A stretch of 64,000 nt of DNA from a candidate division WS6 bacterium OLB20 (GTDB lineage Bacteria > Patescibacteriota > Dojkabacteria > B142 > OLB20): contig JYNZ01000003.1 in NCBI GenBank assembly GCA_001567355.1, positions 466,263 through 530,262 of the forward strand, in the 5' to 3' direction. Both the position numbers and the translations under genes were made by a program. Shown one piece after another: positions 459 through 61,227 of the stretch (its first letter is position 1; each line of letters starts with the position of its first letter). The notes under the pieces were generated by a model. That model saw nothing but the letters and a program-made list of their open reading frames with translations. It was not told where the DNA came from and searched no databases.

Positions 459-1052
459 ATGAAGGCAGGCATAATCGGCGTCAAATATGACGATGAATTA
501 TATCCTACCTATAAGCTAATTAAAGAGCTTATAGAAAAAAGCGGCAACAAAGTTGACTTCACCTACTTTGAGACCAGTGCCGAAGAGGACTACAAGGATC
601 TTGAAGGTACACACAAGCGCAACCAGAGTCTCCTTAAAACCAATGACTTTATCATTGCGGAGACGACAAACTACGGTAGCGGCATCGGATACCTTATAGC
701 ACAGGCTCTCAACGAAAAAAAACCCGTCCTTGCACTCTACAACCCCGAAAAGGGCGAGAAACCGTCAGCAATTATCAAAGAGTCAGCCAACAAATCAAGG
801 CTGCTGCATTTCTCCGAATATACCGATTCAACACTCGAAGGTGTCATCAAGACATTTCTGAGCGACCTGAAGAAGGTTATGGACACCAAATTTATCCTTA
901 TCATCTCTCCAGAGATCGAACGTTACCTTGAGTGGGTCTCCGATGAGCGCCGTATGCATAAAGCTCAGGTAGTCCGCCAGGCAGTTGAAGAGACGATCGA
1001 AAAAGATAAAGAGTACCAGGAGTACCTCAAAGGAGAATACGGGGAAGCTTAG
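459..1052 (+). CDS. Nucleoside 2-deoxyribosyltransferase-like (SLOG/Rossmann-like) protein with a helical C-terminal region
   Basis: ATG at 459 (the provided ORF starts at an upstream TTG). The N-terminus MKAGIIGVKYDD...FIIAETTNYGSGIGYLIAQALNEKKPVLALY resembles the deoxyribosyltransferase/DNPH1 fold. It sits in an AT-rich divergent promoter region spanning 272-458. Confidence 0.4.
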   Translation: MKAGIIGVKYDDELYPTYKLIKELIEKSGNKVDFTYFETSAEEDYKDLEGTHKRNQSLLKTNDFIIAETTNYGSGIGYLIAQALNEKKPVLALYNPEKGEKPSAIIKESANKSRLLHFSEYTDSTLEGVIKTFLSDLKKVMDTKFILIISPEIERYLEWVSDERRMHKAQVVRQAVEETIEKDKEYQEYLKGEYGEA

Positions 1053-1076: not shown

Positions 1077-1103
1077 AAACGGACCGCCTCGGGCGGTCCG
1101 TTT
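1077..1103. terminator. Bidirectional intrinsic terminator hairpin between convergent genes
   Basis: Perfect inverted repeat aaacggaccgcc-tcg-ggcggtccgttt between the stop of 459..1052 (+) and the stop of 1107..2408 (-). Confidence 0.6.
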
Positions 1104-1106
1104 GAT

Positions 1107-2408
1107 TTAAGACATAACGCCGATATCCTCCGGTATGTATTGCCGGAAGTTTTCCGGTGTGATGTGGAACTTTTCACCCTGCCCCATCACAACCTGCTTT
1201 GCCACTTTTCTGACAAGCCTTGTCAAGGTGCGCTCAAGCTCACGGATACCCGCATCAAAGCCGAGCGGGCGGATAACCAGCGGCCATACCTGATCATCAA
1301 ATGTGATCTGGTCGTCGTCCAGTCCGGACGTACTGAGCACTTTGGGCAGCAGATAGTCCCGTGCAATATGCATTTTTTCGTCATCGCTGTAACTGATCAT
1401 ACGCACGACCTCAAGACGGTCAAGAAGCGCGGCGCTGATCCCTCCCAGATTATTGGCTGTCGCTACAAAGATGACATTGGACAAGTCTACGGGGTAATCA
1501 ATAAAATTATCACGAAATGTTGAATTCTGCTCGGGGTCAAGGATCTCAAGCAGTGCTGCCATGACATCCGCACGCGATGACTCGGAGATCTTGTCGATCT
1601 CATCCATCAGGATCATCGGATTCATGACCTCGGTACGTATCAGCGCCTTGATTACCTGACCCGGTTCTGCATCAGGCTCGCCGCGGGATCGGCCGCGCAG
1701 CTCTGTGACACCGGCAAGACCGCCAAGCGAGATACGTACAAATTTACGCCCCAGAGCAGTTGCGATAGACTTTGCAATCGAGGTTTTACCGATACCCTGG
1801 ATACCTACAAGCGCAAGGATGGGCGCATGTGACGAGCTTCCCTGCAGTCTCGCCATCTCCTCAGGGGTACCTGCACCCTGCTGTGCCTCCTCGGCGTCTT
1901 TTTTCAGGCGCAGATTAAGCATAGCGACGTACTCAAGCATGCGCTCCTTGATGTTCTCAACACCGAAGTGCGTCTTATCAAGCTGCGCCTTGACGTGTGT
2001 CAGGTCAAGATTGTCCTCTGTGTATTTACCCCAGGGGATTGAAGTGATTGTGGAAACGTACTTTTCGACAGATTCATACTCCTTTGAAAACGATCCGTAG
2101 CGCGCCATTTTCTGCAGTCGCTTGACCATACCCATTCCTTTTTCACGCAGCTCCTCCGGCAGCAGTGAGTTCTGCAGCTTGCCGGCAAGCATATTGACCT
2201 CTTCAATCTCACTGACAAATTCCTGCTCCTGGGGTTCTGGTACCAGTACAGGTGCTGACGCCGGCTGCTGCTGCACCTGAGCCGGCTGGACGACCTGTGA
2301 CTGCTGCACTGGCGCTGCAGGTGGGACCGGTTGCGAGGCAGTACTGTCCGGCAGCTCGCGCGGCGTGTCATATCCTGATTGGGGTGTTACTGGTTGAGCA
2401 GACTGCAT
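1107..2408 (-). CDS. Lon-like AAA+ ATPase lacking the protease domain, with a Pro/Gln-rich N-terminus
   Basis: Walker A GIQGIGKTS and the Lon-specific stretch GRKFVRISLGG...RGRSRGEPDAEPG...MILMDEIDK...LLEILDPEQNSTFRDNFIDYPVDLSNVIFVATANN...LLDRLEVV match Lon's AAA+ module. The ORF ends right after the alpha-helical lid, with no Ser-Lys protease domain. The first ~60 aa are low-complexity P/Q-rich. Confidence 0.7.
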   Translation of the reverse strand: MQSAQPVTPQSGYDTPRELPDSTASQPVPPAAPVQQSQVVQPAQVQQQPASAPVLVPEPQEQEFVSEIEEVNMLAGKLQNSLLPEELREKGMGMVKRLQKMARYGSFSKEYESVEKYVSTITSIPWGKYTEDNLDLTHVKAQLDKTHFGVENIKERMLEYVAMLNLRLKKDAEEAQQGAGTPEEMARLQGSSSHAPILALVGIQGIGKTSIAKSIATALGRKFVRISLGGLAGVTELRGRSRGEPDAEPGQVIKALIRTEVMNPMILMDEIDKISESSRADVMAALLEILDPEQNSTFRDNFIDYPVDLSNVIFVATANNLGGISAALLDRLEVVRMISYSDDEKMHIARDYLLPKVLSTSGLDDDQITFDDQVWPLVIRPLGFDAGIRELERTLTRLVRKVAKQVVMGQGEKFHITPENFRQYIPEDIGVMS

Positions 2409-2416
2409 CAGTGCAA

Positions 2417-2450
2417 CAAAAAAGCCATATACATCAGTATATGGCTTTTC
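2417..2450 (-). terminator. Intrinsic terminator downstream of rplY
   Basis: Minus-strand hairpin gaaaagccatata-ctgatg-tatatggcttttt followed by a T-run, directly 3' of rplY. Confidence 0.55.
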
Positions 2451-3157: not shown

Positions 3158-3650
3158 TCAAACAGCGTCTGCCACTCTGATCACAATCCGGCGGTCTTCA
3201 CCCTCACCGGTGCTCTCACTGACAATACCCTGTTCTTGTTTCAACGCCATGTGAACCACACGGCGTTCTGATGGTTTCATAGGCTGCAGTTCCATCTCCT
3301 GACCGCTCTCGCGGACCTGATCTGCTGCACGCAGTGCATAGGAGCGCAGGTATTTTTTCGCGGCTCTCGCGGTAGTCGTTGATCTCAACCAGTACACGAA
3401 GATTCTCTTCGGTATCCAGTTTTTTGACAAGCATCATTCCCAGAATGATCTGCAGTGACTCAAGATTGCGACCATGATGGCCGATCAGCTCGTTAAGATT
3501 ATCGCCCTCAAGCTTTACGCCAACATACCTGATGCCGCGCTCTGTATCAGAATCACTGAAGTCAACAGCAATATCAGCATCCAGTCCGAGCTGTGTGAGC
3601 AGCTCTTCGGTCAATTGTCTGGCAGTACTTAAAATATCACCGTCACTCAT
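3158..3650 (-). CDS. jag: Jag/KhpB RNA-binding protein (Jag_N + KH + R3H), frameshifted at an A6 run
   Basis: ORF 3216..3695 carries the Jag N-terminus and KH region (MSDGDILSTARQLTEELLTQLGLDADIAVDF...). ORF 3158..3430 in another frame carries the R3H domain (RRVVHMALKQEQGIVSESTGEGEDRRIVI). The junction is at the homopolymer 3352-3357. The start MSDGDIL at 3650 sits 7 nt after the yidC stop. Confidence 0.65.
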
Positions 3651-4932
3651 TATCTTTGGGTGTTGAAGATGTAAAACGCGCAAAAACTTTATCACGATTG
3701 GTGATAAGCTGCTCGATTATAACAAAAGCGCTCTGCCCAGTCCAGAAGAGGCTTACTCCTGCAGGAAAGATACTCCCCCCGCCCAGAAACCCAAGCGACA
3801 TGAGGGTTGTCAGTACCGGAAAGATAAACATCATTGATTGTGTTGAGCTCTGCATCATCTCAGCAAAATCTGGTTCTTCAGGCTCTTCCTTTTTATCTTT
3901 TTTGTCCTTTTTCTTTTTAGATTTAGAGTCCTCCTCTTTATCCGGCTGCTTATTGAGAGACGAAAAGCCCATCTGAATGCGCGAGGCAAAGAACTGTGTA
4001 ACGCCCACGCCGACTGCAATTACTACGTAGGGAGCAACAGCAGCCGGATTGGAAAAACCGATATCGGTTGCGACCAGTGACAGGTCGGCTCCGATAAATT
4101 CGAAGTTGAGCGATGTTCCCTGCGTGTAGGATACACGGTCTGCAGGTACTTCTTCGCCATCAAGCAGAACCTGCAGCGAACTGTAATCAATCGTCTCCTG
4201 CGATGGAGGACGGACAAATGCTTTGATCTGGGTTACATCACCTCCGACAACAGGATCAGGTGTAAACTCAGGAATGTACACGGCAATATTTGCCTGCCGC
4301 CAGGACGCCGTGAGGCGGTCAAGATTGGCCCGCTCTTCCTCGTTCAGATTTGCCTCCCGGTCGCGCAGTTCATTCAGCAGTGTTGACCGGGTGCCATCGT
4401 CAGATGCGCGGACAAAATCAATCACATACTCCACCCGGGCTCCGTCACTTGCCTGCAAAACATAGGTCAGGCTGTGCTGACCGTCCTCAAATCCCTCGGG
4501 CAGCGTGACCGATACCGAATCCTCCGGCAGCTTGAGCGATTCGGCATATGCTACCTGATTAAACGCATGCACACCCTGGTTTACAAGGTTGATGACCACG
4601 TTCCTGACCTGGATAAGCAGCACGATCACAATAATCAGATTAAGACAGCCCATAAGCTGTCCGGGCAGGTACTCTGCCTGCAGCTTGGCCATCTCCTTAG
4701 CCAGTGTCTCCTGATCGTTTTTGTACTTTTTGCGGACATCCTTTGTACGTTCCTGAAATTCACGGTTTTTTTCTGCCGAGTTGATCTGCCTGCGTGTAAG
4801 CGGATACGTGACCAGCTTTGCAACAAGAGCTACAGCCAGAATGGCCAGTCCGAGATTTTCGGACAACAGCTGATACAGCACCATCAGGATGTTGAATATC
4901 GGGACGTAGAAGAAGTTGTGAAAAATATCCAT
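3643..4932 (-). CDS. yidC: Membrane protein insertase YidC/Oxa1 family with a long Lys/Asp/Glu-rich insertion
   Basis: Typical YidC start MDIFHNFFYVPIFNILMVLYQ, multiple TM segments, and a position immediately upstream of jag. Confidence 0.85.
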   Translation of the reverse strand: MDIFHNFFYVPIFNILMVLYQLLSENLGLAILAVALVAKLVTYPLTRRQINSAEKNREFQERTKDVRKKYKNDQETLAKEMAKLQAEYLPGQLMGCLNLIIVIVLLIQVRNVVINLVNQGVHAFNQVAYAESLKLPEDSVSVTLPEGFEDGQHSLTYVLQASDGARVEYVIDFVRASDDGTRSTLLNELRDREANLNEEERANLDRLTASWRQANIAVYIPEFTPDPVVGGDVTQIKAFVRPPSQETIDYSSLQVLLDGEEVPADRVSYTQGTSLNFEFIGADLSLVATDIGFSNPAAVAPYVVIAVGVGVTQFFASRIQMGFSSLNKQPDKEEDSKSKKKKDKKDKKEEPEEPDFAEMMQSSTQSMMFIFPVLTTLMSLGFLGGGSIFPAGVSLFWTGQSAFVIIEQLITNRDKVFARFTSSTPKDNE

Positions 4933-31465: not shown

Positions 31466-33297
31466 TCAGAGTGTATACGAACGTACACGCAGCGCATTCA
31501 GTATTACAATCACGTCAATCACTTCCTGTGCAAATGCTCCGAATACAGGGACAAACAGGCCTAACGCACCCGCAATCATCAGCACGAGACTCAAACCGAT
31601 ACCGATCAGAATACTCTGTGTCGCGATGTAGAGCACCCGCTGCGACAGGGCGACACTGTATGCCACCCTGCTGATATCAGGCACTGTGATCACAACAGAC
31701 CCGGCTTCTGTGCTGGCGGATGTACCCAGTATCCCCATGGCAATACCTACATCGGCAGCAGCAAGTGATGGCGCGTCGTTAATTCCGTCGCCGACCATCA
31801 CAACGGGCTGCTTCAGTTCATCTTTCAGAGAATGTACAACCGCCAGTTTATCCTCGGGAAGACAGTCGGCTTTATACTCCGTCAGACCAAATGCCTCAGC
31901 ATGCCGTGCTGCTACATCCTTTGTGTCTCCGGTCAGCATAAGCTGACGCGATACACCCAGCTCTCTAAGCCTGTCGAGTGTTGAACGTACTTCACTACGG
32001 GCGCTGTCCTCAAATACAAAGGCTGCAAGCAGTCTGTCATCCATACCGAGTAATGCCACACTTGCCCCGGGGCGTTTTAAGTCTGCTGTACTGATCCTGT
32101 GCACGATCGCTACTAAACAGAGACGGTTTTCCAAGAACATACATGCTTCCGTCGAGACTGAAGCGTACACCCTGTCCAAACTCCTCCGAAAAAGTCTTCC
32201 GGGTACGAAAGCTCCGCTCCATGTTTCTGCGCGTACCTGACAAGGGACCGGGCCACTACATGCTGAGAGAGCTGCTCGGCTGATGCAGCAATGCGCAGCA
32301 CCTCAGCTTTGTCTTTACTGTCAAGCAGGACAACCTCGGTTACGGCCGGTACGCCCATGGTCAGTGTCCCTGTTTTATCAAAGATGACAGCAGTCGCACG
32401 CGCGAGATGTTCCATCGCCTCACCGGATTTAAACACAACTCCTTTGCCTGCCGCCTTGCTGATACCGGATGCAAACGCAATCGGTGTAGCAAGTATCAGC
32501 GGACACGGTGTTGCAACGACCAGCACGCTCAGGGCACGGACGGGGTCGCCTGACAACACCCAGGCAGCCGCGGCCAGGGTAAACGCTACTGCAGTAAATC
32601 CAACACTGTAACGGTCTGCCAGACGGACAAATGGTGCTCTGTTTTCTTCAGCCTCTTTAACAAGTTCGACAATCAGCTGATACTTGCTTTCTGATGCGGT
32701 CCTGTCGGCACGGATTACAAGCGGACTGCCCGAGACTACCGATCCGCTCATCACCTGCATGCCTGCACGCTTCTGCACAGGCAGCGACTCACCCGTGATT
32801 GAAGACTGATCAACCTCACTCTGCCCCTCTGTAACTGTACCATCAACCGGGACGACCTCACCGGGTCTGATCACCAGTTCATCGCCTGCTTTGACCCTGT
32901 CCACTGGCACATCAGTGATGGTTTCACCGGAACGGATGTGCGCACGTGTCGGAACGAGAGACAAAAGCCTGTTCAGTTCGTTGCGGGACCGCTTTAAGGC
33001 AAATTCCTCCAGCAGTTCACCGCCGGAGAGCATCAGCACAATAATGGCACCGGCAAGGACTTCGCCGAGCAGCAGACTGCCAAGAATTCCTGCAAGAGCG
33101 ATATAGTCAACTCCAAACCTTTTCTGCAGCAGCATTTTTGCAGTATCAATCACCAGCGGGACAAGACCAAGGGTTACCGCAGCCTGCAGAATAATCAGCG
33201 CTGCATTTGCGTTACCGGTCAGATGCAGGAGCAGATGGATGATAATTGCAGCCAGTGTAGCTGCAGGCAGGAATGCTTTGAAAATGATTTTGTTCAT
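31466..33297 (-). pseudogene. P1B-type heavy-metal-translocating P-type ATPase without an N-terminal metal-binding domain, disrupted by at least two frameshifts
   Basis: TGES, CPC (VVATPCPLILATP) and DKTGTLT motifs in ORF 32113..33297. The middle segment SEEFGQGVRFSLDGSMYVLG is in ORF 32037..32243. The hinge MLTGD...VGDGINDAP and last TMs are in ORF 31466..32179. The three pieces are in three different frames. Confidence 0.65.
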
Positions 33298-41234: not shown

Positions 41235-41531
41235 ATGCAGGTTGAGTACGCAAGCAGAAAAGCCGAGAAGACGTTCAATAAGTACCTCAACGGTACTGAG
41301 TTTTCCAGCAAGATCGAACGGCGTATCCTTGAGTTAGAGGCAGCTCAAGACCTTTCACAAATAGATGCAATCAAGTCTCTACAATTGCATAAGCTTTCCG
41401 GCAAGAGGAAGGGACAAATGTCCATCGCCTGCAAAGGGAGTTGGAAAATAGTTTTTATTGCAAAAGTGGATTTTACTCAATATTCAGAAGTTACAGAGAT
41501 AGAGCTACTGGACTTCGTAGACTACCATTAA
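41235..41531 (+). CDS. higB: HigB-like (RelE/ParE superfamily) toxin
   Basis: LHKLSGKRKGQMSIACKGSWKIVFIAKV...ELLDFVDYH parallels HigB LHPLKGDREGYWSI..NWRITF...YEDYH. Confidence 0.65.
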   Translation: MQVEYASRKAEKTFNKYLNGTEFSSKIERRILELEAAQDLSQIDAIKSLQLHKLSGKRKGQMSIACKGSWKIVFIAKVDFTQYSEVTEIELLDFVDYH

Positions 41532-41534
41532 AAA

Positions 41535-42638
41535 ATGGGCATTAAGTTAGATACAACACAATTTATCATTCCCCCGGGCGAGACCATCAAAGAACAACTC
41601 GCTTATCTTGGCATGTCTCAAAAAGAACTAGCCACAAGAATGAACTACTCAGAGAAGGCTATTAGCAAGCTGATAAACGGAAAAGTTTCATTAACGACTG
41701 ACACGGCACTTGAACTAGAGAATATTTTTGGAATACCTGCAGTTTTTTGGATTAACCTTGATGCGAACTATCAACTACGTAAGAAAAGACAAGAGGATAT
41801 CACTGTATCTAAGAGCGAGATAGACATTGCGAGAAGATATAAGTGTTACGCGGAGATTTCCAATCGCGGGTATGTAAAGAAAACTAGCGACTGGCATCTT
41901 CGTGTTAAAGAACTCTGTCGCTTCTTTGGGGTTTCGAACTTAGGTCAAATTATGAAGCTCGATTATGGAGTAGCATTTAAACAAGCAAGTTCACGCTCAA
42001 TTGACTCATATTCAGTGCAATGTCTTCTAAGAATTGGAGAATTGGAAGCACAAGACATAAGTGTTCCCGATTTTAACAAAGAGGGATTAAAGGAACTTAT
42101 CCCCCAAATTAGGAGTCTAATCACCTTACCTATAGAAGAAGCAATTCAGAATTTACGAGTATTACTAAATTCTGTTGGTGTTAGACTCGTTTTGACTCCA
42201 TCGATCAGCAAAACGATGATTAATGGAGCAGTGAAGTGGTCAGATGACAGGCCAACAATACAAGTGACAGATTACAAGAAAGCTGTTGATATCTTTTGGT
42301 TTACAATTTTCCATGAGCTAGGACATGTTTTGCTTCATGGTAGAGGAAAAGGGAAAAGGTTCGTAGATACATACTCAAATTTATCAAGTAAAGAGAATAT
42401 TGAACTGGAAGCGAACCAATTCGCGCAGAATACGCTTATACCAGAAGATGCATTTAATGATTTCATTGAGAATGGTAGCTTCTATGAAGCTGATATTATA
42501 GGATTCTCAGCTGTTGTAGGTATTCCTGCATCCATCATCGCTGGGAGACTGGCTCACGACAAGAGTATTACTCAGTACGGATACAACTTTGCTCAAAAAT
42601 TCCGAACGAGTATCGATCTAACAGAGATAAATATCTAG
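41535..42638 (+). CDS. HigA-like HTH-XRE antitoxin fused to an ImmA/IrrE family zinc metallopeptidase domain
   Basis: N-terminal HTH (LGMSQKELATRMNYSEKAISKLINGK) and a C-terminal HEXXH motif FTIFHELGHVLLHG. Begins 4 nt after higB. Confidence 0.7.
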   Translation: MGIKLDTTQFIIPPGETIKEQLAYLGMSQKELATRMNYSEKAISKLINGKVSLTTDTALELENIFGIPAVFWINLDANYQLRKKRQEDITVSKSEIDIARRYKCYAEISNRGYVKKTSDWHLRVKELCRFFGVSNLGQIMKLDYGVAFKQASSRSIDSYSVQCLLRIGELEAQDISVPDFNKEGLKELIPQIRSLITLPIEEAIQNLRVLLNSVGVRLVLTPSISKTMINGAVKWSDDRPTIQVTDYKKAVDIFWFTIFHELGHVLLHGRGKGKRFVDTYSNLSSKENIELEANQFAQNTLIPEDAFNDFIENGSFYEADIIGFSAVVGIPASIIAGRLAHDKSITQYGYNFAQKFRTSIDLTEINI

Positions 42639-43372
42639 CAGATCGGATCATATCCCTCACAAGCGTCATACACATAGACATCATCGTATCTTTTCATTCC
42701 TACATACCCCTGAACCAACACTAAATATAGAACATCCTTATTTATCAACGGATTATTCCGAAATTGTCCAGATACATAATCATAAACATCTTCGTCCTCA
42801 GTAAACGGTCTCCAATGACTAATATAGATGATTCCTTTATCACCTTTCTTTCTCTTGCGATATTTCAATATTTGATTTTGAGCATCCTCAATACGGTCTT
42901 TCAGCCAACGTATACTTACAGCAGTCTCCTCTACTGAGGATTTTACCTCAGTGTAGAAAGTTACCCCGTTACACTCACTCTTTAGATCGGGTGTTTTTCC
43001 ATTTTCTTCAGGGATAAACTCAATAAATTCATGCCCCATCTCCAGCAGCCTATGCAAGGCTTCGAATTCAGAGGTGGCCAACCTAAAATCCTTTTGTGAC
43101 ATCCTCCTAGCTTTATCAAGCCACGGCGAGATATCAATATCATTATCGAGAATGTTTCTCACCCTTTCTTCATTTACCTCCACTTCATGACGTCCTGTTA
43201 GAGCTATTAGGTCTTGCAACTTCAGCCAATTATCAGCCTTGCGTCTTATTAACTGCACTTCGTCATAATATGGGATAAGAGATGTTTCTTTCCCAATATG
43301 AGTGAATATGAAAGTATTAGGATCAAAGTTTGAGAGTGTAAACACTTGACCCTTTATTGAATTCTTCGGCAT
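42635..43372 (-). CDS. Hypothetical protein with a PD-(D/E)xK-like motif (possible nuclease)
   Basis: TPDLKSECNGVTFYTEVKS matches PD-x(n)-E-V-K; no other support. Confidence 0.3.
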   Translation of the reverse strand: MPKNSIKGQVFTLSNFDPNTFIFTHIGKETSLIPYYDEVQLIRRKADNWLKLQDLIALTGRHEVEVNEERVRNILDNDIDISPWLDKARRMSQKDFRLATSEFEALHRLLEMGHEFIEFIPEENGKTPDLKSECNGVTFYTEVKSSVEETAVSIRWLKDRIEDAQNQILKYRKRKKGDKGIIYISHWRPFTEDEDVYDYVSGQFRNNPLINKDVLYLVLVQGYVGMKRYDDVYVYDACEGYDPIC

Positions 43373-43410
43373 AACATTATACGAAGCTATAACTCCTCCC
43401 TTGTAACTAC

Positions 43411-43737
43411 CTACCCATTCTGAACATGCTCGTCATAATGCTCAAGCCTATTTCGAGCTGAACGCTTGTGAATCGAACTAGACTCTTTGACCCCAATAAG
43501 TGAGGCCACTGTTTCTTCATATGGTGCACTCTTGCTATTCTGGGGATTTGCTTTTAGCAACTTCGAGACCATAGCGCAATGCGTCAAAAAAGAATGAATC
43601 GACGAAAAAACTAAATCTGTATTTCTAGCCACCTTAGGCTCGAGGCTCTCAAAAGAACGTATTGCAAATGTACATTGTGTGGAAATCTCCCTAACTAGGA
43701 ATTCTTTCCATAAGGCTTCTTTCTGTTTGTTACTCAT
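43411..43737 (-). CDS. Hypothetical small protein, upstream partner of 42635..43372
   Basis: ORF only. Confidence 0.3.
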   Translation of the reverse strand: MSNKQKEALWKEFLVREISTQCTFAIRSFESLEPKVARNTDLVFSSIHSFLTHCAMVSKLLKANPQNSKSAPYEETVASLIGVKESSSIHKRSARNRLEHYDEHVQNG

Positions 43738-43957
43738 ATGTTAAGATTAATAATTCCAAGGGGTTAATATCCCAAGAAGTCCCTCAGTACTCTTTTATGA
43801 GGTTGTAACAAAAATCGCACCAACTCTTCGAGGTCACAACAGGAACAGCTCAATCTCTGTATTTACAGTTTTACCATACCCTTGCACGTGACCCAATGCT
43901 CACAGGGTTACCCTAGATCGTGCTATTGTGTAAGATGTACACATATTATAACCCACC

Positions 43958-44793
43958 ATGAACATACTTAACGCACTAATCAACCTTAGCAAGAGAGACA
44001 CATACAAGATAGACGAGCTATACGAAGGTAATAACCGGATTAATAATGTTGGAGATGCACTGGAGTATTTCATCAAGGATGGGTTCATTAACGAGGAAGT
44101 TTCAAGTAATGAACAAAGAGACAAGAAGTATAGTGAGGCATTCTCTTACCTTGGAAATAGTTCTAATCCACCCGATTTTATGCTTAGAGGTGGTGATGCA
44201 TTTGAAGTAAAAAAAGGTAAAACTCATTACCTCTAACCTAGCTCTAAATAGTTCGCATCCAAAGGACGTACTTTACAAAGATGACCCAAAGATTTCATCA
44301 AGCTGTCGAGAGGCCGAAGGTGGGCAATGGGATAAAAAAAGACTTGGTATATGCTGTTGGAATAGTTAACGAAACAGTTGAAAAAGTATTGTTTGTATAT
44401 GGCGATTGCTATTCTGCGAACAAGGATACCTATGTAAGAGTTAGTAATATGATAAGAAGTGGAATTATATCAATAGAGGGGGTTGAGTTCGCAGAAACTT
44501 CAGAGTTAGGAAGGGTAAATAAGGTTGATCCCCTAGGAATTACTTACTTAAGAATGAGGGGGATGTGGCACATAGAGACTCCATATAAACTGTTCAAAGA
44601 TCAACTAATAGAGCTAGATGCACTCGATAAAAGAATAATCTCGATAATGAAAAAGACTAAGTTTGATGAACTTATAACTGATGAATTAAGGCAGAGTTTA
44701 GAGAAGAATAATACAATCAAAACATGCAGGTTAAGAGACCCCAATAACCCTGCTATACTATTTGACTCAATTATCATTCACTCAAACACATGA
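43958..44793 (+). pseudogene. Type II restriction endonuclease (partner of the HaeIII-like methyltransferase), split into two ORFs
   Basis: PD-(D/E)xK motif PDFMLRGGDAFEVKK in ORF 43958..44236. The C-terminal part is in ORF 44281..44793 in another frame, with stops in both frames between them. Its stop overlaps the MTase start (ATGA). Confidence 0.45.
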
Positions 44794-45782
44794 AAATAGC
44801 ATCATTATTTGCAGGCGCAGGGGGTTTAGACAAAGGTTTTGAAAACGCAGGGTTCACTGTTGAGTGGGCGAATGAATACGACAAAACTATTTGGGAAACA
44901 TTTCGTAAGAATTTTCCTAAAACTCGTCTAGATGAAAGATCAATTCGTGATGTAGATAGTCAGGAAATAAAATCCTTTGGACACTTCGATGGTTTAGTAG
45001 GTGGTCCACCATGCCAAAGCTGGAGTCTTGCCGGGTCAATGAAAGGTATTGAAGATCAACGAGGGTCTCTTTTCTACGAATACCTCAGAGTACTTAGTGA
45101 TATTGAACCCAAGTTTTTTTTAGCTGAGAACGTCCCGGGGTTGATAAGTAAAAGACACATTGGTGAATATAAAAAAATTGTTGCAGAGTTTGAAAAACGA
45201 GGATACCAAGTTACAGAAGGTAAGGTAAATGCTTCAGATTATGGAGTTCCCGAAGATAGAGAGAGGGTAATTATTGTTGGTTTTCATAAAGACTTAAATA
45301 GAAAATTCATTTTTCCGGAGAGGACTCACAATAAGTTAAAGAAAGTCACATTAAAACAGGCAATAGGTGATCTTCCTGAGCCTGTTGCAGCTCTCCCAGG
45401 TAACAATGCGAACTCTAACCTCAAGATACCAAACCATGAATACTTCACTGGAGCATTCTCATCTAGATTCATGTCACGAAATAGAATTAGAGGTTGGGAT
45501 GAGCAGGCATATACAATCGAAGCAAGTGGAAGACATGCAAAACTACACCCTTCTGCACCGCCAATGAAGAAGATCAATAAAGATGAATGGATATTTGAGA
45601 AAGGAAGCGAACATAAATATCGAAGGTTAAGCATCAGGGAGAGTGCTAGGATTCAGACCTTTCCAGACAATTTTATATTTCACTACAGCAAAGTAAATGA
45701 TGGTTATAAAATGGTCGGGAATGCAGTGCCTGTAAAATTAGCAGAAGCGTTCGCAAATGAGATTTTAAAGCAGATTGCTTAA
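44790..45782 (+). CDS. DNA (cytosine-5)-methyltransferase, M.HaeIII-like (probable GGCC specificity)
   Basis: Motif I FAGAGGLDKGF, motif IV GGPPCQSWSLAG, motif VI FLAENVPGL. Length 330 aa with extended similarity to M.HaeIII as recalled (ANEYDKTIW..., PNHEYF..FMSRNR.., FIFHY...DGYKM.GNAVPV). Confidence 0.85.
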   Translation: MKIASLFAGAGGLDKGFENAGFTVEWANEYDKTIWETFRKNFPKTRLDERSIRDVDSQEIKSFGHFDGLVGGPPCQSWSLAGSMKGIEDQRGSLFYEYLRVLSDIEPKFFLAENVPGLISKRHIGEYKKIVAEFEKRGYQVTEGKVNASDYGVPEDRERVIIVGFHKDLNRKFIFPERTHNKLKKVTLKQAIGDLPEPVAALPGNNANSNLKIPNHEYFTGAFSSRFMSRNRIRGWDEQAYTIEASGRHAKLHPSAPPMKKINKDEWIFEKGSEHKYRRLSIRESARIQTFPDNFIFHYSKVNDGYKMVGNAVPVKLAEAFANEILKQIA

Positions 45783-45846
45783 GATTATTGGGTAACTTGT
45801 TGTCCCAAGTAGCTACCACGTTCTACAGCAGACTTTTGTTCAACGA

Positions 45847-45945
45847 TCAATTTGCCTGCCCCTCCCCCTTTTCGTAGGTTTCATCTTCATACTCCTTAGA
45901 AAACTCTATTGCTCTTTTTCTTATTTCATTCCAACTAAGGGCCAT
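45847..45945 (-). pseudogene. 32-aa N-terminal remnant of an MmeI-family (type IIL) restriction-modification enzyme
   Basis: Minus-strand translation MALSWNEIRKRAIEFSKEYEDETYEKGEGQAN then stop. MmeI-family proteins begin MALSWNEIRRKAIEFSKRWEDA.... Confidence 0.55.
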
Positions 45946-46305
45946 TGTACTTTTTTTGCTTTAATTAATTCTTAAGTCAACGGAAAGGCGAATGCCTTAT
46001 TCTACAGCATTTTACCCGAAAGAACATGCCACAAAACTATGAAGATCGACACGTTGCAACAACATACAAGATTTCCGCTGGTATTTCATACCACCTAATA
46101 GACGGCCCTAGTTAGTACATAAAAAAAACAAACTCTCAGACAACAGCGCCTCGTATTCAGAAGCACACCAAGCCCTACCAAAAATAAAGACGTCCGCCTA
46201 TCAAGAAATAAATGTCAACCAACTAGACCATTTTAGTCTACCTGGTAGACACATACATTCTATCCCCACTATAAGTTATACTCATACATATCAGCCATCA
46301 AATAC

Positions 46306-47178
46306 ATGCCAGACCTCCATACGAAATCAATTTCTTTAGACAACCTTTTGGACTCAATCAAGGAATTGATGAACCTACGAGAATCAGAGTATGCTGATTC
46401 GATTGATTCCTTCTTGGGTCTACCCCTTGAGACGAAAGAGGTAATCATTATCAGCCCCCAAAAACACTTTGTCGATAAACTTTATAGATACTACGGATCA
46501 CTTCAAGAGTACCCTACACGCGTCCAAGACAAGTTGGCTCTAAGAGGTGCTCAAGCACAAATTGAAGAGCCACTATTTGTTCACCACTCACCAGTGCTAG
46601 TTACTGACTCAGTATTCACACAACGAGTAATTAATAAATTGAAGGATTTAGAGTTTGTGATAAATGCAGGCCAACGAATACTTGACTACATCGACATTGC
46701 GGGTAAACAAGTCCTGAAAGATAACCTAGCAGAATTCGCTATCCCCGGTTCAACAATTGACTCCGTTGCGGTGACACAGATCACATTTAATTACGAAAGG
46801 TTTCTTATACAGCGATCCACAACCTCACTGCTCTACCCTATGATCAAGAGTCATCAGTTTAAGCTGCTAGCTAATGGCACATTTTATCTTCGAGTACGTG
46901 ACGATTGGAGACTAGGTATAAATACTTCAATCACAGATAAATATGGAAACCAATCCAATAGCAGTAAACTCTTGATTCATCTTCTTCAAGAAAAGAACAG
47001 AATGCCTCAGGTCAATAGATTCCCCATCAAACTACTGCAACGTGAGCTAGGAATTGCTCCAAAACAGATACTCTCGGCGATGGCATCAATAAACAGGAGT
47101 GTCAGTGAATACAAAGCCAAAGAGTTGATAGTCCTGAAGCGTGACAAAGAAGATATAGTGTTTATTTTGCGAAATTGA
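46306..47178 (+). CDS. Hypothetical protein (island cargo)
   Basis: ORF only; AT-rich. Confidence 0.35.
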   Translation: MPDLHTKSISLDNLLDSIKELMNLRESEYADSIDSFLGLPLETKEVIIISPQKHFVDKLYRYYGSLQEYPTRVQDKLALRGAQAQIEEPLFVHHSPVLVTDSVFTQRVINKLKDLEFVINAGQRILDYIDIAGKQVLKDNLAEFAIPGSTIDSVAVTQITFNYERFLIQRSTTSLLYPMIKSHQFKLLANGTFYLRVRDDWRLGINTSITDKYGNQSNSSKLLIHLLQEKNRMPQVNRFPIKLLQRELGIAPKQILSAMASINRSVSEYKAKELIVLKRDKEDIVFILRN

Positions 47179-47222
47179 ATCAGCTGCCTAGCTGATCAGA
47201 GCTGAAGTAATAGTCTCTGGGT

Positions 47223-47387
47223 ATGAAAGTACCCAAAGAAGAGAAACAAATAATTACAGTAAAGGAAGCTAGGAAACTTCTCGGTATTGACGCTAAGCAC
47301 CTAGACGATGAAACAATTGAAGCAATTGTCGACTCTTTAACTCAACTTGCTCATATACAAGTTAATATCAGACAGGAGGGACAGTAA
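47223..47387 (+). CDS. 54-aa putative HTH DNA-binding protein upstream of the recombinase (possible Xis/RDF or regulator)
   Basis: MKVPKEEKQIITVKEARKLLGIDAKHLDDETIEAIVDSLTQLAHIQVNIRQEGQ. Below the ORF-track cutoff. Confidence 0.3.
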   Translation: MKVPKEEKQIITVKEARKLLGIDAKHLDDETIEAIVDSLTQLAHIQVNIRQEGQ

Positions 47388-47437
47388 TTTTTCGATGGCT
47401 GAAGATACTGTTCTTCCTGTTTGTTATTGCAGCCATC

Positions 47438-49040
47438 ATGAATAAGAAAGTAATCGGTGTTGGATACATAAGAGTATCAACGACCAAGCAGGCCGACGAA
47501 GGCGTCAGCCTTGATGTCCAACGCCAAAAAGTAATATCCCTCCTTAAAGAGCAAGGGTGTCAAACGATCAAAATTTATGCAGACGAAGGCAAGAGTGCTC
47601 GTGACGAAAAGGTCGAGACCAATTTCTTGAGGCAATTGATTACTCAACGACTAATAGTGTCCCTTATTTCGCCTGCTACGACCCAACAAGGTTTGCCCGC
47701 AACTCCGTCCAATCACTTGAGTATTTTCAAACACTTCGTGAAGCTGGCACAAAATTGATCTTTGTTGAACAAAAATTTGATGATAGTCCATTAGGTAGGT
47801 TTCTCTTTAACCTTTACTCTGGCCTTGCACAACTACAGAGTGAGGAGCAGGGGCAGAAAATACAGAACTCCATAATTGAGAAGCATAGAAGAGGGGAATT
47901 TCCGCATATGTCACCACCGGGTTATCGGAACATCCGCAGACCTGATGGTCGTGCTGATATTATCATCGAGAAAAAGAATGCCGATCTCTAAAACATGCGT
48001 TTAGAGGATATCTGTCTGACGAGTTCTATCATTTGAGTGACGTTGTGGATTTTTTGAGACGCAATAAATTCAAACCTTATTATTCACGAAAGAGAAAATT
48101 TGAGAGCATAACCGACTCTTCGATAAGTAGAATCTTCAGACAACCGTTCTATGCTGGGTACTTTTACAGCAAAGCGTTAAAGAAAGAGATACCACATGTA
48201 TATCCAACCATAATTACAAGAGAAGAGTTTAAGTTGATTCAGGATAAAATGAGAGGCAAACGCAAACAAACCAATCACTATAAAAAACGTAATCCTGATT
48301 TCCCACTAAGAGCTTCAGCAAGATGCTCAGTATGCGGCAACAAAGTTAGGGGACATAACTCAAAAGGTAGAACTGAGACCTATCCATACTATGCATGCCA
48401 CAAAACACCAGACTGTATAAAGTCTATTCCTACCGAAGATGTACATACCCAGTTTATCGAAAGTCTATCAGCAATCTCGCAGAGTACTGGTAAGCTTCGA
48501 CTATTCACAGAGATACTAAGACGCGTAATTGAACAGGAAAAACAAAATGACAATCGACGGGAGATACTTAGTGTGAGGCAAAGAAGCCTCGAAAAGAAGC
48601 TAAATAACATTACTGACAAAATACTAAACCTAACAAATCAGTCCGTGCTAAAGCGATTAGAGGAAGATTTTGAAGCAAGAACAAATGAGCTTAGCGAAGT
48701 AAAGAGGCAACTTGAGACAATCTCAAAGGAGAATTGCGAACCACCCAGACTTGAAGACGTCACCCTTCTTTCTAATCCAAGTGCGATATGGAAATCGGCA
48801 GGTATTAAAGAAAAAATCGATTTCACAAAGTGGTTATTCCCTGATGGTTTTGAAATAACCCCGAAAAAACAATTGCGAACCGGTGAGATCAATATAGTTT
48901 ACAAGGCTTTAGGGGCTGTTGAGTCTAATGATTCTCAACTGGTGGAGATGGCGGGAGTTGAACCCGCGTCCAGAGAAGCCAAACACATGCAGTATACAGA
49001 TATAGCCATCCTGTTTCAGACGGATCGCGATAAAGGATAG
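47438..49040 (+). pseudogene. Large serine recombinase (resolvase/invertase N-domain + recombinase domain + zinc ribbon + coiled coil), broken into three ORFs
   Basis: The catalytic Ser context GVGYIRVSTTKQADEG is in 47438..47758. The end of the resolvase domain and PPGYRN are in 47755..47991. The recombinase domain, C-x2-C...C-x5-C zinc ribbon and coiled coil are in 48033..49040. Frame changes fall near 47750 and 47985 (A5 run). The last ~100 nt are antisense to the tmRNA 3' end. Confidence 0.7.
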
Positions 49041-49392
49041 CGTAAACCGCGAAACGACTGTACGCTTTTACTTTGCTCTAACAGGCGTACAAGCCACTAG
49101 AGTCTGCACTTTAGCTTGTTTTTCTCCCACGGGACCCCGCTAAAGGAGAGTTTCCATGAAAGGCTTAAATCGCGAGCCGAAGCTCAAGCGAATTTAGGCA
49201 GCGATGTTGAGGGCAAAGTTGCCGCTAAGGGCGAGCTTTACGTTCTCAACAAAGCTTGATACTTTGTTTTTGACGCTTATTTAGTCATTCCGGTTTGATC
49301 CGGAAGGAATCTGCTTACTTACGGCGAAACAGACTAAACAACACCGATCTGCCACACGTATCTGGTATTTCCTGTCGAATCCGGTCATCCCC
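48940..49392 (-). ncRNA. ssrA: tmRNA (SsrA)
   Basis: Minus-strand 5' end GGGGATGACCGGATTCGACAGG matches the canonical tmRNA 5' end (GGGGcuGAuucuGGAUUCGACgGG). The 3' end GGACGCGGGTTCAACTCCCGCCATCTCCACCA has a T-arm near-identical to E. coli tmRNA. The acceptor stem has a G3:U70 wobble. An internal tag-like frame ends ...GNFALNIAA then TAA. Confidence 0.8.
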
Positions 49393-49638
49393 GAAAACAC
49401 CTCCTCCACCTGGCTCGTCGGGCTTGCCTCCAGAATGAGGCACTAGACCCTGCCGTAAGAGAAGATGTTTGCGGGAATATCGACAGATTGTAAATGAGCT
49501 GGACATACAGTATAGCATATTTCTGCAGGATTTTAAGGGAATGTATATGCAGGGCAAGGCGATGACCTCAAACACAGACCGGTTGTATGGACGTTACGCG
49601 TAAATACCGCTAAAATTCTGACATATCTCACACCAACC

Positions 49639-60068: not shown

Positions 60069-60449
60069 TTGCGGATACCCCTTGGTATTCTCATGGGTGC
60101 CCTGTTACAAAGCGGTAATATTGTTTCAGTAGAAATCCCTGCAAGCAATGTCACTGCAGAGCAGATGCCTGAACAAAGCCATACCCGGGATAGTATTGAG
60201 GCACTGTTAATGAGATATGTGAGTGGAATAATTATTGATGACTACAGTCATTTTGCCAGACCATCCTGTAACAATGACTGGACAGAAGGTAATAAGCCAG
60301 TGCTTCTGGAAGACGAGGAGGCCGATTCGACACAGGAATTTGATCGTTATGCAACACAACCCTCAGAGACATCGTCACTGCTGAGAATCATCGCACAGGA
60401 CGACACGCTTCCGTTAGACAGTAGTCCCCACTACCCCGACAGCGATTAG
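60069..60449 (+). CDS. Hypothetical acidic protein
   Basis: ORF only. Confidence 0.25.
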   Translation: MRIPLGILMGALLQSGNIVSVEIPASNVTAEQMPEQSHTRDSIEALLMRYVSGIIIDDYSHFARPSCNNDWTEGNKPVLLEDEEADSTQEFDRYATQPSETSSLLRIIAQDDTLPLDSSPHYPDSD

Positions 60450-60820
60450 GCTTTCGCAAGACCTGCCAGATATACTCCAAGCTTTTCAGCGAGGTTGCTG
60501 CCGTCTGTATAGACAAGCACCGTCTTTGTAATTGCTGCAATCACCCCGCTTGGTTTAGCATCCTCGCGCACAACAGCAACGACCGGAATACCGATACTGT
60601 CGGCCCAGCCAAGCTCGATACCCATGCCGGTAGAAGGGTAACTGACTTCAGCAATCACCAGATCAAAGCTGCGCATCTCGCTGCGTGAGTCATACTGTTC
60701 TGAGGAATGTTCATGCGGAAACACCACTTCATGCTCTTTGCTCCATGCTGCATCATGCAGAGGACGGTAAAGCTCGTTCTTAAAATCAAATCCTGAGGAA
60801 TGTGCAACATATATTTTCAT
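60446..60820 (-). CDS. Nucleoside 2-deoxyribosyltransferase-like / DNPH1-like protein (paralog 2)
   Basis: MKIYVAHSS...FDLVIAEVSYPSTGMGIELGWADSIGIPVVAV parallels the DNPH1 core AEVTxPSLGVGYELG. Confidence 0.5.
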   Translation of the reverse strand: MKIYVAHSSGFDFKNELYRPLHDAAWSKEHEVVFPHEHSSEQYDSRSEMRSFDLVIAEVSYPSTGMGIELGWADSIGIPVVAVVREDAKPSGVIAAITKTVLVYTDGSNLAEKLGVYLAGLAKA

Positions 60821-61227
60821 GGGGCAAGGCGTGATGGAATAAACTGTTCAAGATCTTCTATTGTTGAGTACTCAAATACCTCAAAGTAATCATTCCCCCG
60901 GATAATCGCAGACAGCAGTTTTTCTCCGGGACGGAACAGACACAGCACCGGGATGTTGCGTGCCTCCGCATAGCAGAGTTCGTAACCTACACCAAGACTG
61001 GGTCTGGTTACTTCGGCTACGACAAGATCTGAGCTTTCCAGCCATTCAAGGTCACGTCTGCGGATAAACGAGTCCTTTTTCTCAACTTCACCCTGTTCTG
61101 ACAAAGAAGCCGAACCGATATGCTCGGTGACAACCTCGGCATGATTCTGCAGAAGAGTGATTATCTTTGCATACAGCTCAGCATCTTCGCGCCCTGCCCT
61201 GATTGAACCCGCAAAGTAGATCTTCAT
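60817..61227 (-). CDS. 2'-deoxynucleoside 5'-phosphate N-hydrolase (DNPH1/Rcl)-like protein (paralog 1)
   Basis: MKIYFAGSIRAGRED...DLEWLESSDLVVAEVTRPSLGVGYELCYAEARNIPVLCLFRPGEKLLSAIIRGN closely follows the DNPH1 pattern. 4-nt overlap with paralog 2 and 2 nt from pgi. Confidence 0.65.
   Translation of the reverse strand: MKIYFAGSIRAGREDAELYAKIITLLQNHAEVVTEHIGSASLSEQGEVEKKDSFIRRRDLEWLESSDLVVAEVTRPSLGVGYELCYAEARNIPVLCLFRPGEKLLSAIIRGNDYFEVFEYSTIEDLEQFIPSRLAP

Follow-up and report, generated by a model that had tools for sequence, protein, structure and literature searches.

A Lon-type AAA+ ATPase without a protease domain in a Dojkabacteria genome: architecture, family and possible function

Architecture and family of LonX

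The DNA analysed here is a 64-kb stretch (the window) of contig JYNZ01000003.1 from candidate division WS6 (Dojkabacteria) bacterium OLB20, and close to its beginning lies a gene for a protease-less Lon-type AAA+ ATPase, for which we use the working label LonX. The full-length open reading frame (ORF) occupies positions 1107..2408 of the minus strand, a strand assignment missing from the original prediction made for this DNA, and encodes 433 amino acids (aa) between an ATG start and a TAA stop at 1107-1109. The choice of start codon is backed by homologues that begin with MQSAQ or MQSSA, and the protein is 100% identical to a deposited "Lon protease 1" from a 745-kb contig. Pfam identifies an AAA domain at aa 199-339 (E 4.5e-20) and a Lon_lid domain (PF22667) at aa 361-412 (E 1.4e-10), and it matches neither Lon_C nor LON_substr_bdg (PF02190) in the protein. 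The "endopeptidase La" model TIGR00763 is matched at model positions 255-570 of 795 only (E 6e-104), and LonX scores under the curated equivalog cutoffs of both TIGR00763 (349.1 vs 608.05 bits) and NF008053 (246.6 vs 891 bits); no NCBIfam model claims it. The nearest solved structures are B. subtilis LonA (3m6a, E 3.9e-74) and human LONP1, and aa 192-427 align with LonA without gaps. An AlphaFold2 model calculated with 67 family sequences as input is confident, with a mean predicted local distance difference test score (pLDDT) of 83.9, and when it is compared with the PDB by Foldseek the top matches are all LonA or LONP1 (E 6e-31, TM 0.65-0.70). These results bear out the view that the ATPase module is Lon-type, and the domain search that had been proposed as a check for Lon_C confirms its absence.

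From the N terminus, the protein opens with a disordered Pro/Gln-rich tail, aa 1-59 (2232..2408, minus strand, as for all LonX features), which is modelled with a pLDDT of 45-52; the composition of the first 65 aa includes 14 Gln, 13 Pro, 9 Val and 7 Ala. The original prediction had described the LAN substrate-binding domain as replaced by a P/Q stretch. LAN is indeed absent and the tail is P/Q-rich, but it is not a defined replacement, being conserved in composition only: in the 60 closest homologues listed it measures anywhere between 0 and 141 aa, a distant member has a tail of ~317 aa with 94 Gln and 44 Pro, and across the family sequence and length vary with a low-complexity Q/P/N/S/T-rich composition retained. 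The longer family members carry no extra Pfam domains, their extensions being only low-complexity and Q/P/S-rich. Beyond LAN, the coiled-coil helix of LonA has also been lost, and the three-helix bundle is retained. This LonA-type helical region before the AAA+ module, aa 60-176 (1881..2231), aligns to LonA just past the coiled-coil helix, and its helices (60-80, 85-104, 108-123, 136-146 and 151-176) all have pLDDT values >85.

Between the bundle and the AAA+ domain lies a Dojkabacteria-specific linker or insertion, aa 167-196 (1821..1910), of low model confidence (pLDDT 55-71). The linker varies among Dojkabacteria, its conserved part being the terminal EMxRLQGSSSHAP, and in the Dojkabacteria homologues conservation is 90% or higher at linker positions M185, L188, G190, S192, A195 and P196. 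A cross-clade alignment finds this element missing from LonA and from the other protease-less clades. The AAA+ α/β domain follows at aa 197-340 (1389..1820), covered by the Pfam AAA match, and contains Walker A, GIQGIGKT (1782-1805), and Walker B, MILMDE (1599-1616); none of its catalytic positions varies across the 120 homologues. The Lon-type lid (α) subdomain, aa 342-416 (1161..1385), corresponds to PF22667 and bears the invariant sensor-2 residue R389. The protein ends in a flexible tail, YIPEDIGVMS, aa 424-433 (1110..1139; pLDDT ~52), that is conserved in the family.

The ORF finishes 17 aa past the lid. An architecture of this kind could arise from a truncated or frameshifted canonical lon, or from an assembly or annotation error, and it is true that databases call the protein "Lon protease 1" or "ATP-dependent Lon protease" and that a nearby jag/khpB gene in the window looks frameshifted. 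Since the stop is TAA, a genetic code that recodes UGA would not lengthen the ORF. When six frames of the window and of the DNA within ±10 kb of 12 related loci (at least five clades; L numbers below denote individual loci) were searched by tblastn, no match was obtained with Lon_C, for which the query was the peptidase domain of the canonical LonA of locus L010, or with ClpP and HslV, for which E. coli sequences were used. Profile hidden Markov models (HMMs) of Lon_C (90 sequences) and LAN (42 domains) likewise found nothing in six frames of the window and the 12 loci. L010 served as the positive control, and the Lon_C tblastn query and both HMMs all match it, with the ClpP query matching the control locus too. 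Among 30 of the larger ORFs of the window, the only peptidase-type Pfam matches are M23, M78/IrrE and an α/β-hydrolase, with no ClpP, HslV/20S or Lon_C.

The same architecture and C-terminus are found in hundreds of independent assemblies, no remnant of a protease domain is present in any frame searched, the DNA downstream of LonX is taken by a conserved convergent gene, and the catalytic residues are strictly conserved. On these grounds we reject a truncated or frameshifted lon, and an artefact of any of the kinds named is exceedingly improbable. The original prediction had the ORF stopping after the lid, followed by a terminator and a convergent gene, with no protease domain nearby. Each of these elements is in place (TAA at 1107-1109, a hairpin at 1077-1103, a gene at 459-1052, and empty tblastn and HMM searches of the window and 12 loci), and the protease domain behind a missed frameshift that it had raised as a counter-possibility appears in none of the six frames.

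The best 120 matches listed to LonX, which form our Dojkabacteria homologue set, are 366-499 aa long and 54-78% identical to it apart from the deposited copy (100%). They are annotated as "AAA family ATPase" or "Lon protease" and come from Dojkabacteria wherever an organism is named. Their Pfam architecture is the same as that of LonX, without Lon_C, and their C-terminal end position is identical in 120/120, in agreement with the earlier description of LonX as a protease-less Lon derivative. A scan of a genome collection added two further Dojkabacteria loci and three loci coding for 362-373-aa proteins, 45-46% identical, that also stop after the lid. These three belong to a second clade of at least 120 relatives of 351-375 aa, a few reaching 455, which are assigned to Collierbacteria, the Microgenomates group or Patescibacteria where named; Lon_C is present in none of the closest 120 relatives of this clade. 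A profile search of 1.84 billion representatives returned 18 Lon_C-less 50%-identity clusters among the top 150, the rest being ordinary ~800-aa LonA. No canonical Lon from the candidate phyla radiation (CPR) was found, the nearest canonical representatives coming from Babeliales, Gemella, a plant and unnamed sequences.

A phylogeny had been suggested as a further check, and we computed a neighbour-joining tree from 332 columns, with 22 protease-less and 40 LonA sequences, the ClpB D2 domain as outgroup and 60 bootstrap replicates. The protease-less sequences group in a single clade next to LonA in 42/60 bootstraps. This moderate support suggests that the LonX family is monophyletic, and the simplest reading would be that a CPR ancestor lost the LAN, coiled-coil and peptidase regions a single time. 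As far as names show, the family is limited to CPR/Patescibacteria (Dojkabacteria, Collierbacteria/Microgenomates and unnamed relatives). Taking the structural and evolutionary evidence together, we are highly confident that LonX is a genuine, vertically inherited, protease-less derivative of LonA.

Two side observations concern the sequences collected here. The metagenome-assembled genomes (MAGs) that hold L007-L009 are deposited as "uncultured Pseudomonadales bacterium"; the close relatives of their LonX proteins are named Collierbacteria, Microgenomates or Patescibacteria, and the MAG labels are probably wrong. Separately, the best profile matches include, at P0121-P0141 and from outside the window, Lon_C-bearing proteins of 900-1,400 aa in which the Lon AAA+ profile matches 4-6 stretches. 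In one of these, P0123, the same canonical pore loop occurs twice, at residues 238 and 606, and the group may represent tandem Lon ATPase modules or fused gene calls.

ATPase motifs, pore loops and C-terminal tail

The general motif set of AAA+ ring ATPases (Walker A/B, sensor-1, trans Arg finger and sensor-2 Arg) is complete in LonX. Walker A (G-x-Q-G-[IV]-G-K-T), Walker B D269-E270, sensor-1 N319/N320, Arg finger R331 and sensor-2 R389 are invariant in the 120 homologues, and this conservation would fit an oligomeric, ATP-hydrolysing ring. The retention of the ring-forming AAA+ core of LonA together with its Arg finger is also what one would see if LonX were a regulatory or partner subunit, entering mixed rings with, or modulating, a full-length LonA, ClpB or FtsH from another part of the genome, as a dominant modulator and not an autonomous machine. 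For such a role it can be added that clpB lies a few kb from LonX in several Dojkabacteria loci and that a canonical Lon may co-exist in LonX-bearing genomes. However, canonical Lon is absent from every neighbourhood examined, Lon_C is found in none of the top 120 matches to either query, and the ~45-60% divergence between clades, with clade signature motifs strictly kept, fits an autonomous conserved function. We therefore regard the partner-subunit explanation as improbable.

The part of the motor that departs from LonA is the axial pore. Pore-loop 1 of LonX, GRSRGEPDAEPG (aa 239-250; 1659..1694), aligns without gaps to B. subtilis LonA; the LonA motif at this position is GHRRTY[VI]G[AS]MPG, and the LonA series R-R-T-Y-[VI]-G-[AS]-[ML]-P-G has become R-S-R-G-E-P-D-A-E-P-G, so that E244-P245 occupy the Tyr-Val positions of LonA. 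In pore-loop 2, S277 stands where LonA has an aromatic residue (Phe/Trp). The family consensus for pore-loop 1 in Dojkabacteria is R-[SPA]-R-[GST]-[ENS]-[IVL]-D-[AS]-E-P-G, that of the Collierbacteria clade is S-R-L-H-[LIV]-E-[SA]-E-P-G, and the element common to every protease-less clade is [DE]-[AS]-E-P-G. The original prediction had spoken of a Lon-specific insert between the Walker motifs. The stretch does align gaplessly with LonA, but its hallmark RRTY[VI]G is replaced by RSRGEPDAE, and the wording was to that extent imprecise.

The distribution of these residues was counted over all 392 fetched proteins, divided into Lon_C-bearing and Lon_C-less. In the Lon_C-bearing relatives an aromatic residue occupies the pore-loop-1 Tyr position in 107/107 scorable sequences, with an acidic residue two positions on in 4 only. 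Among the Lon_C-less proteins, 245 are without the pore-loop-1 aromatic and the acidic residue is present in 237. There are 24 Lon_C-less exceptions that do have the aromatic; 13 of these are canonical LonA fragments and the other 11 are true family members with [YF]-[LP]-[DE]-A-E. The acidic motif is family-defining, and the pore-loop-1 aromatic is relaxed and mostly lost, in LonX as well. The pore-loop aromatics of Meiothermus LonA, Tyr397 (loop 1) and Trp431 (loop 2), touch the substrate during translocation, and degradation depends on both (PMC8503904). Because these aromatic paddles are missing in most members, including LonX, a classical processive unfoldase is unlikely, and the earlier suggestion that LonX may be an unfoldase loses ground with both aromatics gone and an acidic motif in their stead. 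The rewriting of the pore loop, as read from the alignments, argues for a changed mechanism.

The C-terminal tail raises the question of docking. The Dojkabacteria consensus is ...NFR[QE][YF][IL]P[EM]D[IF]G[VI]YS-COOH; the final residues are GVYS in 70/120 homologues and the penultimate residue is Tyr in 84/120, and LonX itself ends in GVMS. In other clades the C-termini are a few residues shorter and usually end in an aromatic residue (FLPKW, PNYY, IQMY, VQAW). LonX could on this basis be the ATPase half of a split two-component protease, docking through its C-tail, as HslU and the proteasomal ATPases do, onto a separate peptidase ring (a stand-alone Lon_C, an HslV/20S/Anbu-like protein or another). 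ClpX and HslU provide precedents for stand-alone ATPases, and the C-terminal tail of HslU activates HslV. The conserved tail ...P[EM]D[IF]G[VI]YS-COOH is found in 120/120 Dojkabacteria homologues and its V-Y-S resembles a hydrophobic-Tyr-X docking motif; AlphaFold2 predicts the tail to be flexible, the other clades have their aromatic C-terminal residue, and the pore-loop aromatic is retained in a minority of members. Several observations speak against a split protease, however. No peptidase gene is present in ±10 kb at the 12 loci or in the window, LonX has V-M-S rather than V-Y-S, the tails differ among clades with no common docking motif, and the pore-loop aromatics needed for translocation are absent in most members. 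The tail could, moreover, be a mere remnant of the linker from lid to protease in LonA. Considering both sides, we judge a split protease unlikely.

Genomic surroundings

LonX looks like its own, monocistronic transcription unit, as terminator-like hairpins lie 5' of its start and 3' of its stop. The 3' element is a G+C-rich 12-bp hairpin at 1077..1103, four bases past the stop and common to both convergent genes, with an RNAfold ΔG of -21.4 kcal/mol for the minus-strand transcript. It is a probable bidirectional terminator, and the terminator consensus scan did not call it because of its short T-run. The 5' element is a 13-bp perfect inverted repeat with a T-run at 2420..2449, between the gene for ribosomal protein L25 and the LonX start, and is probably the rplY terminator; a weak promoter-like site on the minus strand (2436-2464) overlaps it. 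The orthologous locus L005 has the same hairpin directly before the LonX ATG, and in other loci the terminator is followed by an A+T-rich spacer of ~100 nt before LonX.

The convergent gene at 459..1052 (plus strand) encodes a nucleoside 2-deoxyribosyltransferase-like protein of 197 aa. The window copy has no Pfam match, and PF05014 is found in many homologues. The gene lies tail-to-tail with LonX in 6/6 Dojkabacteria loci (~195 aa), and its deoxyribosyltransferase-like character led us to reject it as a peptidase partner. It is a member of a Dojkabacteria-restricted subfamily, with a C-terminal ribbon-helix-helix-like extension seen by eye. The window possibly holds three nucleoside 2-deoxyribosyltransferase-like proteins, the others being encoded at 60446-60820 and 60817-61227 (both minus strand) and identified by eye.

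The gene order yidC, (jag/khpB), rplY (L25), LonX, convergent gene, FtsA/PilM-like ATPase, 1-2 unknown genes, groES-groEL is shared by 6/6 Dojkabacteria loci. The groES-groEL(-clpB) genes lie 4-5 kb from LonX, clpB being seen where the fetched flank extends far enough. In L011, from a distant clade, an FtsA/PilM-like gene starts 91 nt after LonX on the same strand and is followed by two companions, ftsK and a rodZ-like gene; L013 has LonX divergent from groES, L007 has it between pnp and rnj, and L012 shows no pattern. An FtsA/PilM-like actin-fold ATPase gene with 1-2 unknown genes is seen near LonX in 8/12 loci from three clades (L001 13326-16557; L011 11147-14446; L002-L006 and L009), and one of the unknown genes downstream of it in L011 has a weak Baseplate_J-like match.

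This neighbourhood raises the possibility that LonX is an assembly or disassembly factor for the cell-envelope or division apparatus, acting on the adjacent FtsA/PilM-type system or on YidC-inserted clients and not serving general proteostasis. The recurrence of the FtsA/PilM set in 8/12 loci of three clades favours such a role, as do its distance of ~0.8-2 kb downstream in 6/6 Dojkabacteria loci, its place as the next gene set after LonX, in the same orientation, in L011 (it is 7 kb off in L009) and the presence of yidC upstream of LonX in Dojkabacteria. However, in Dojkabacteria the convergent gene and a terminator separate LonX from the FtsA/PilM gene, so that the two are not co-transcribed, the association is missing in L007, L008, L012 and L013, and a shared gene order could be inherited without a functional link. 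We consider an envelope role rather unlikely.

Membership of an anti-phage defence system was also rejected, since PADLOC gave only generic AAA-core matches to LonX (DolB, 29 bits) and the synteny is of a conserved housekeeping kind. A CIRCE-like inverted repeat (controlling inverted repeat of chaperone expression), GTAGCAGTC-N9-GATTGCTAA, with 3 mismatches, is present at 15244-15270 of L002, ~30 nt upstream of groES, and was seen in L002 only.

Other features of the window can be recorded briefly. The jag/khpB-like gene between yidC and rplY (3161-3695, minus strand) is split into two overlapping frames, with a KH-type part at 3216-3695 and an R3H part at 3161-3430 (E 3e-18); it is a single 144-162-aa gene in related loci, and the window copy is frameshifted, as a pseudogene or through a sequencing error. 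A low-GC island at 41500-49400 (GC 0.38-0.44 vs ~0.51 elsewhere) abuts the transfer-messenger RNA (tmRNA) gene at 48940-49392 (minus strand). Its genes include a regulator with a helix-turn-helix (HTH) and a Peptidase_M78/IrrE-like part (41535-42638), a C-5 cytosine DNA methylase (44790-45782) and a serine recombinase split across adjacent ORFs (47438-47991 and 48033-49040), and the whole resembles an integrated mobile element or a restriction-modification island at ssrA. Finally, a P-type ATPase ORF at 32113-33297 (minus strand) is only 394 aa long (E1-E2 ATPase and the start of a HAD domain) and is followed by a separate 237-aa ORF at 31466-32179 (minus strand); this may be an interrupted gene.

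Proposed function and comparison with known systems

The explanation that best accounts for the data overall is that LonX is a LonA-derived ring ATPase working as a stand-alone non-proteolytic remodeller or chaperone, and we hold the chances of this account as a whole to be about even. For its functional part taken separately, that of a stand-alone, non-proteolytic, ATP-driven remodeller or chaperone, our confidence is at best even and perhaps somewhat below. In its descent from LonA, the protein has lost the N-terminal LAN domain, the coiled-coil helix and the entire S16 peptidase domain. What remains would most likely assemble into a Lon-like hexamer, as the intact trans-acting Arg finger and sensor residues suggest, and its intact catalytic motifs predict that it hydrolyses ATP. 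The axial pore carries an acidic [DE]-[AS]-E-P-G loop instead of the Tyr-[Val/Ile]-Gly-x-Met paddle of LonA, and from this remodelling we infer that unfolded chains would no longer be fed into a degradation chamber. Both the acidic pore and six flexible Gln/Pro-rich tails, arranged around its entrance, would take part in client binding.

Several points weigh against a free-standing remodeller or chaperone. The function assigned is itself an argument from sequence. The 11 true family members that retain a pore-loop-1 Tyr or Phe mean that threading may survive in some lineages, perhaps in modified form in LonX. The C-tail is strictly conserved across the Dojkabacteria homologues, which hints at a docking role for which a free-standing chaperone has no evident use. 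The closeness of LonX to groESL, clpB and yidC is only loose synteny, and the CIRCE heat-shock operator is absent upstream of LonX. The ~680 kb of the OLB20 genome beyond the window may also encode a canonical Lon or a free-standing peptidase that partners LonX.

A bolder version is possible, though we consider it doubtful. In an ancestor of Dojkabacteria and Microgenomates, LonA would have shed its protease and substrate-recognition domains and become a new kind of AAA+ machine, whose acidic loop and tails engage distinct clients such as basic or disordered segments, whether it acts purely as a chaperone or is docked by the C-tail onto an unrecognised partner. If true, no natural Lon lineage without a protease would have been known before, and this could be the sole Lon-type factor of these minimal genomes.

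The literature searched describes no natural protease-less LonA lineage and no Lon in CPR bacteria. The truncation alone is not new, as domain loss is common; the novelty lies in an entire CPR lineage that retains the Lon motor in a reshaped form. LonX offers a natural experiment on what the Lon motor does without proteolysis, touches on the long-discussed chaperone-like role of Lon, and informs the study of protein quality control in ultra-small CPR bacteria. It also has a practical consequence for annotation. Hundreds of CPR entries named "Lon protease" or "ATP-dependent Lon protease" cannot be proteases, and metabolic or proteostasis reconstructions in which they figure as Lon are in error.

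Among known systems, the HbYX proteasomal ATPases (PAN, Mpa/ARC, Cdc48) resemble the family in that its consensus Val-Tyr-Ser-COOH on a flexible tail has the hydrophobic-Tyr-X form. They belong to another AAA+ clade, however, LonX ends in Val-Met-Ser, and neither the window nor the neighbourhoods contain a 20S-type gene; the likeness extends over three residues and may be a coincidence. ClpX and HslU are similar to LonX as single HCLR-clade AAA+ ring proteins without a covalently attached peptidase. They differ in that they keep the aromatic pore loop GYVG and their genes typically lie beside clpP or hslV, whereas LonX has no aromatic pore residue, no adjacent peptidase, and neither a zinc-binding domain, an I-domain nor an IGF loop.

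The closest likeness is to LonA, with which LonX shares the three-helix bundle, the AAA+ α/β domain, the Lon-type lid and all ATPase motifs, at ~35-39% identity over ~360 residues. It differs in lacking the LAN domain, the coiled-coil helix and the S16 Ser-Lys peptidase domain, in the change of Tyr-[VI]-G-x-M to E-P-D-A-E in pore-loop 1 and of the pore-loop-2 aromatic to Ser, and in adding the Q/P-rich disordered N-tail, the EMxRLQGSSSHAP linker and a conserved free C-terminal tail. LonX thus falls outside LonA on four features: the peptidase domain, the LAN and coiled-coil regions, the pore-loop aromatics and the curated score cutoff. By definition, Lon is one polypeptide in which an ATPase is coupled to a protease. 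A recent classification has all Lons holding both ATPase and protease domains, with archaeal LonB defined by a membrane-anchoring insert in the AAA+ module and LonB/LonBA by a B- or A-type peptidase domain (PMC9569914). In LonX the membrane insert is not seen, given the gapless alignment to LonA, and the peptidase domain is absent. The lineage, which is large, ancient and well conserved, stands outside Lon subfamilies A, B, BA and C, with the motor kept and the substrate-gripping loop rewritten.

LonC, for example that of Meiothermus taiwanensis, and other Lon-like proteases with inactive ATPase modules are comparable to LonX as Lon derivatives that have relinquished one of the two coupled activities, and a chaperone-like activity has been reported for LonC (PMC13069640; PMC3391209). 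LonC and LonX are mirror images of each other, as LonC has kept the protease and has an inactive ATPase, whereas LonX has kept the ATPase motifs and lost the protease.

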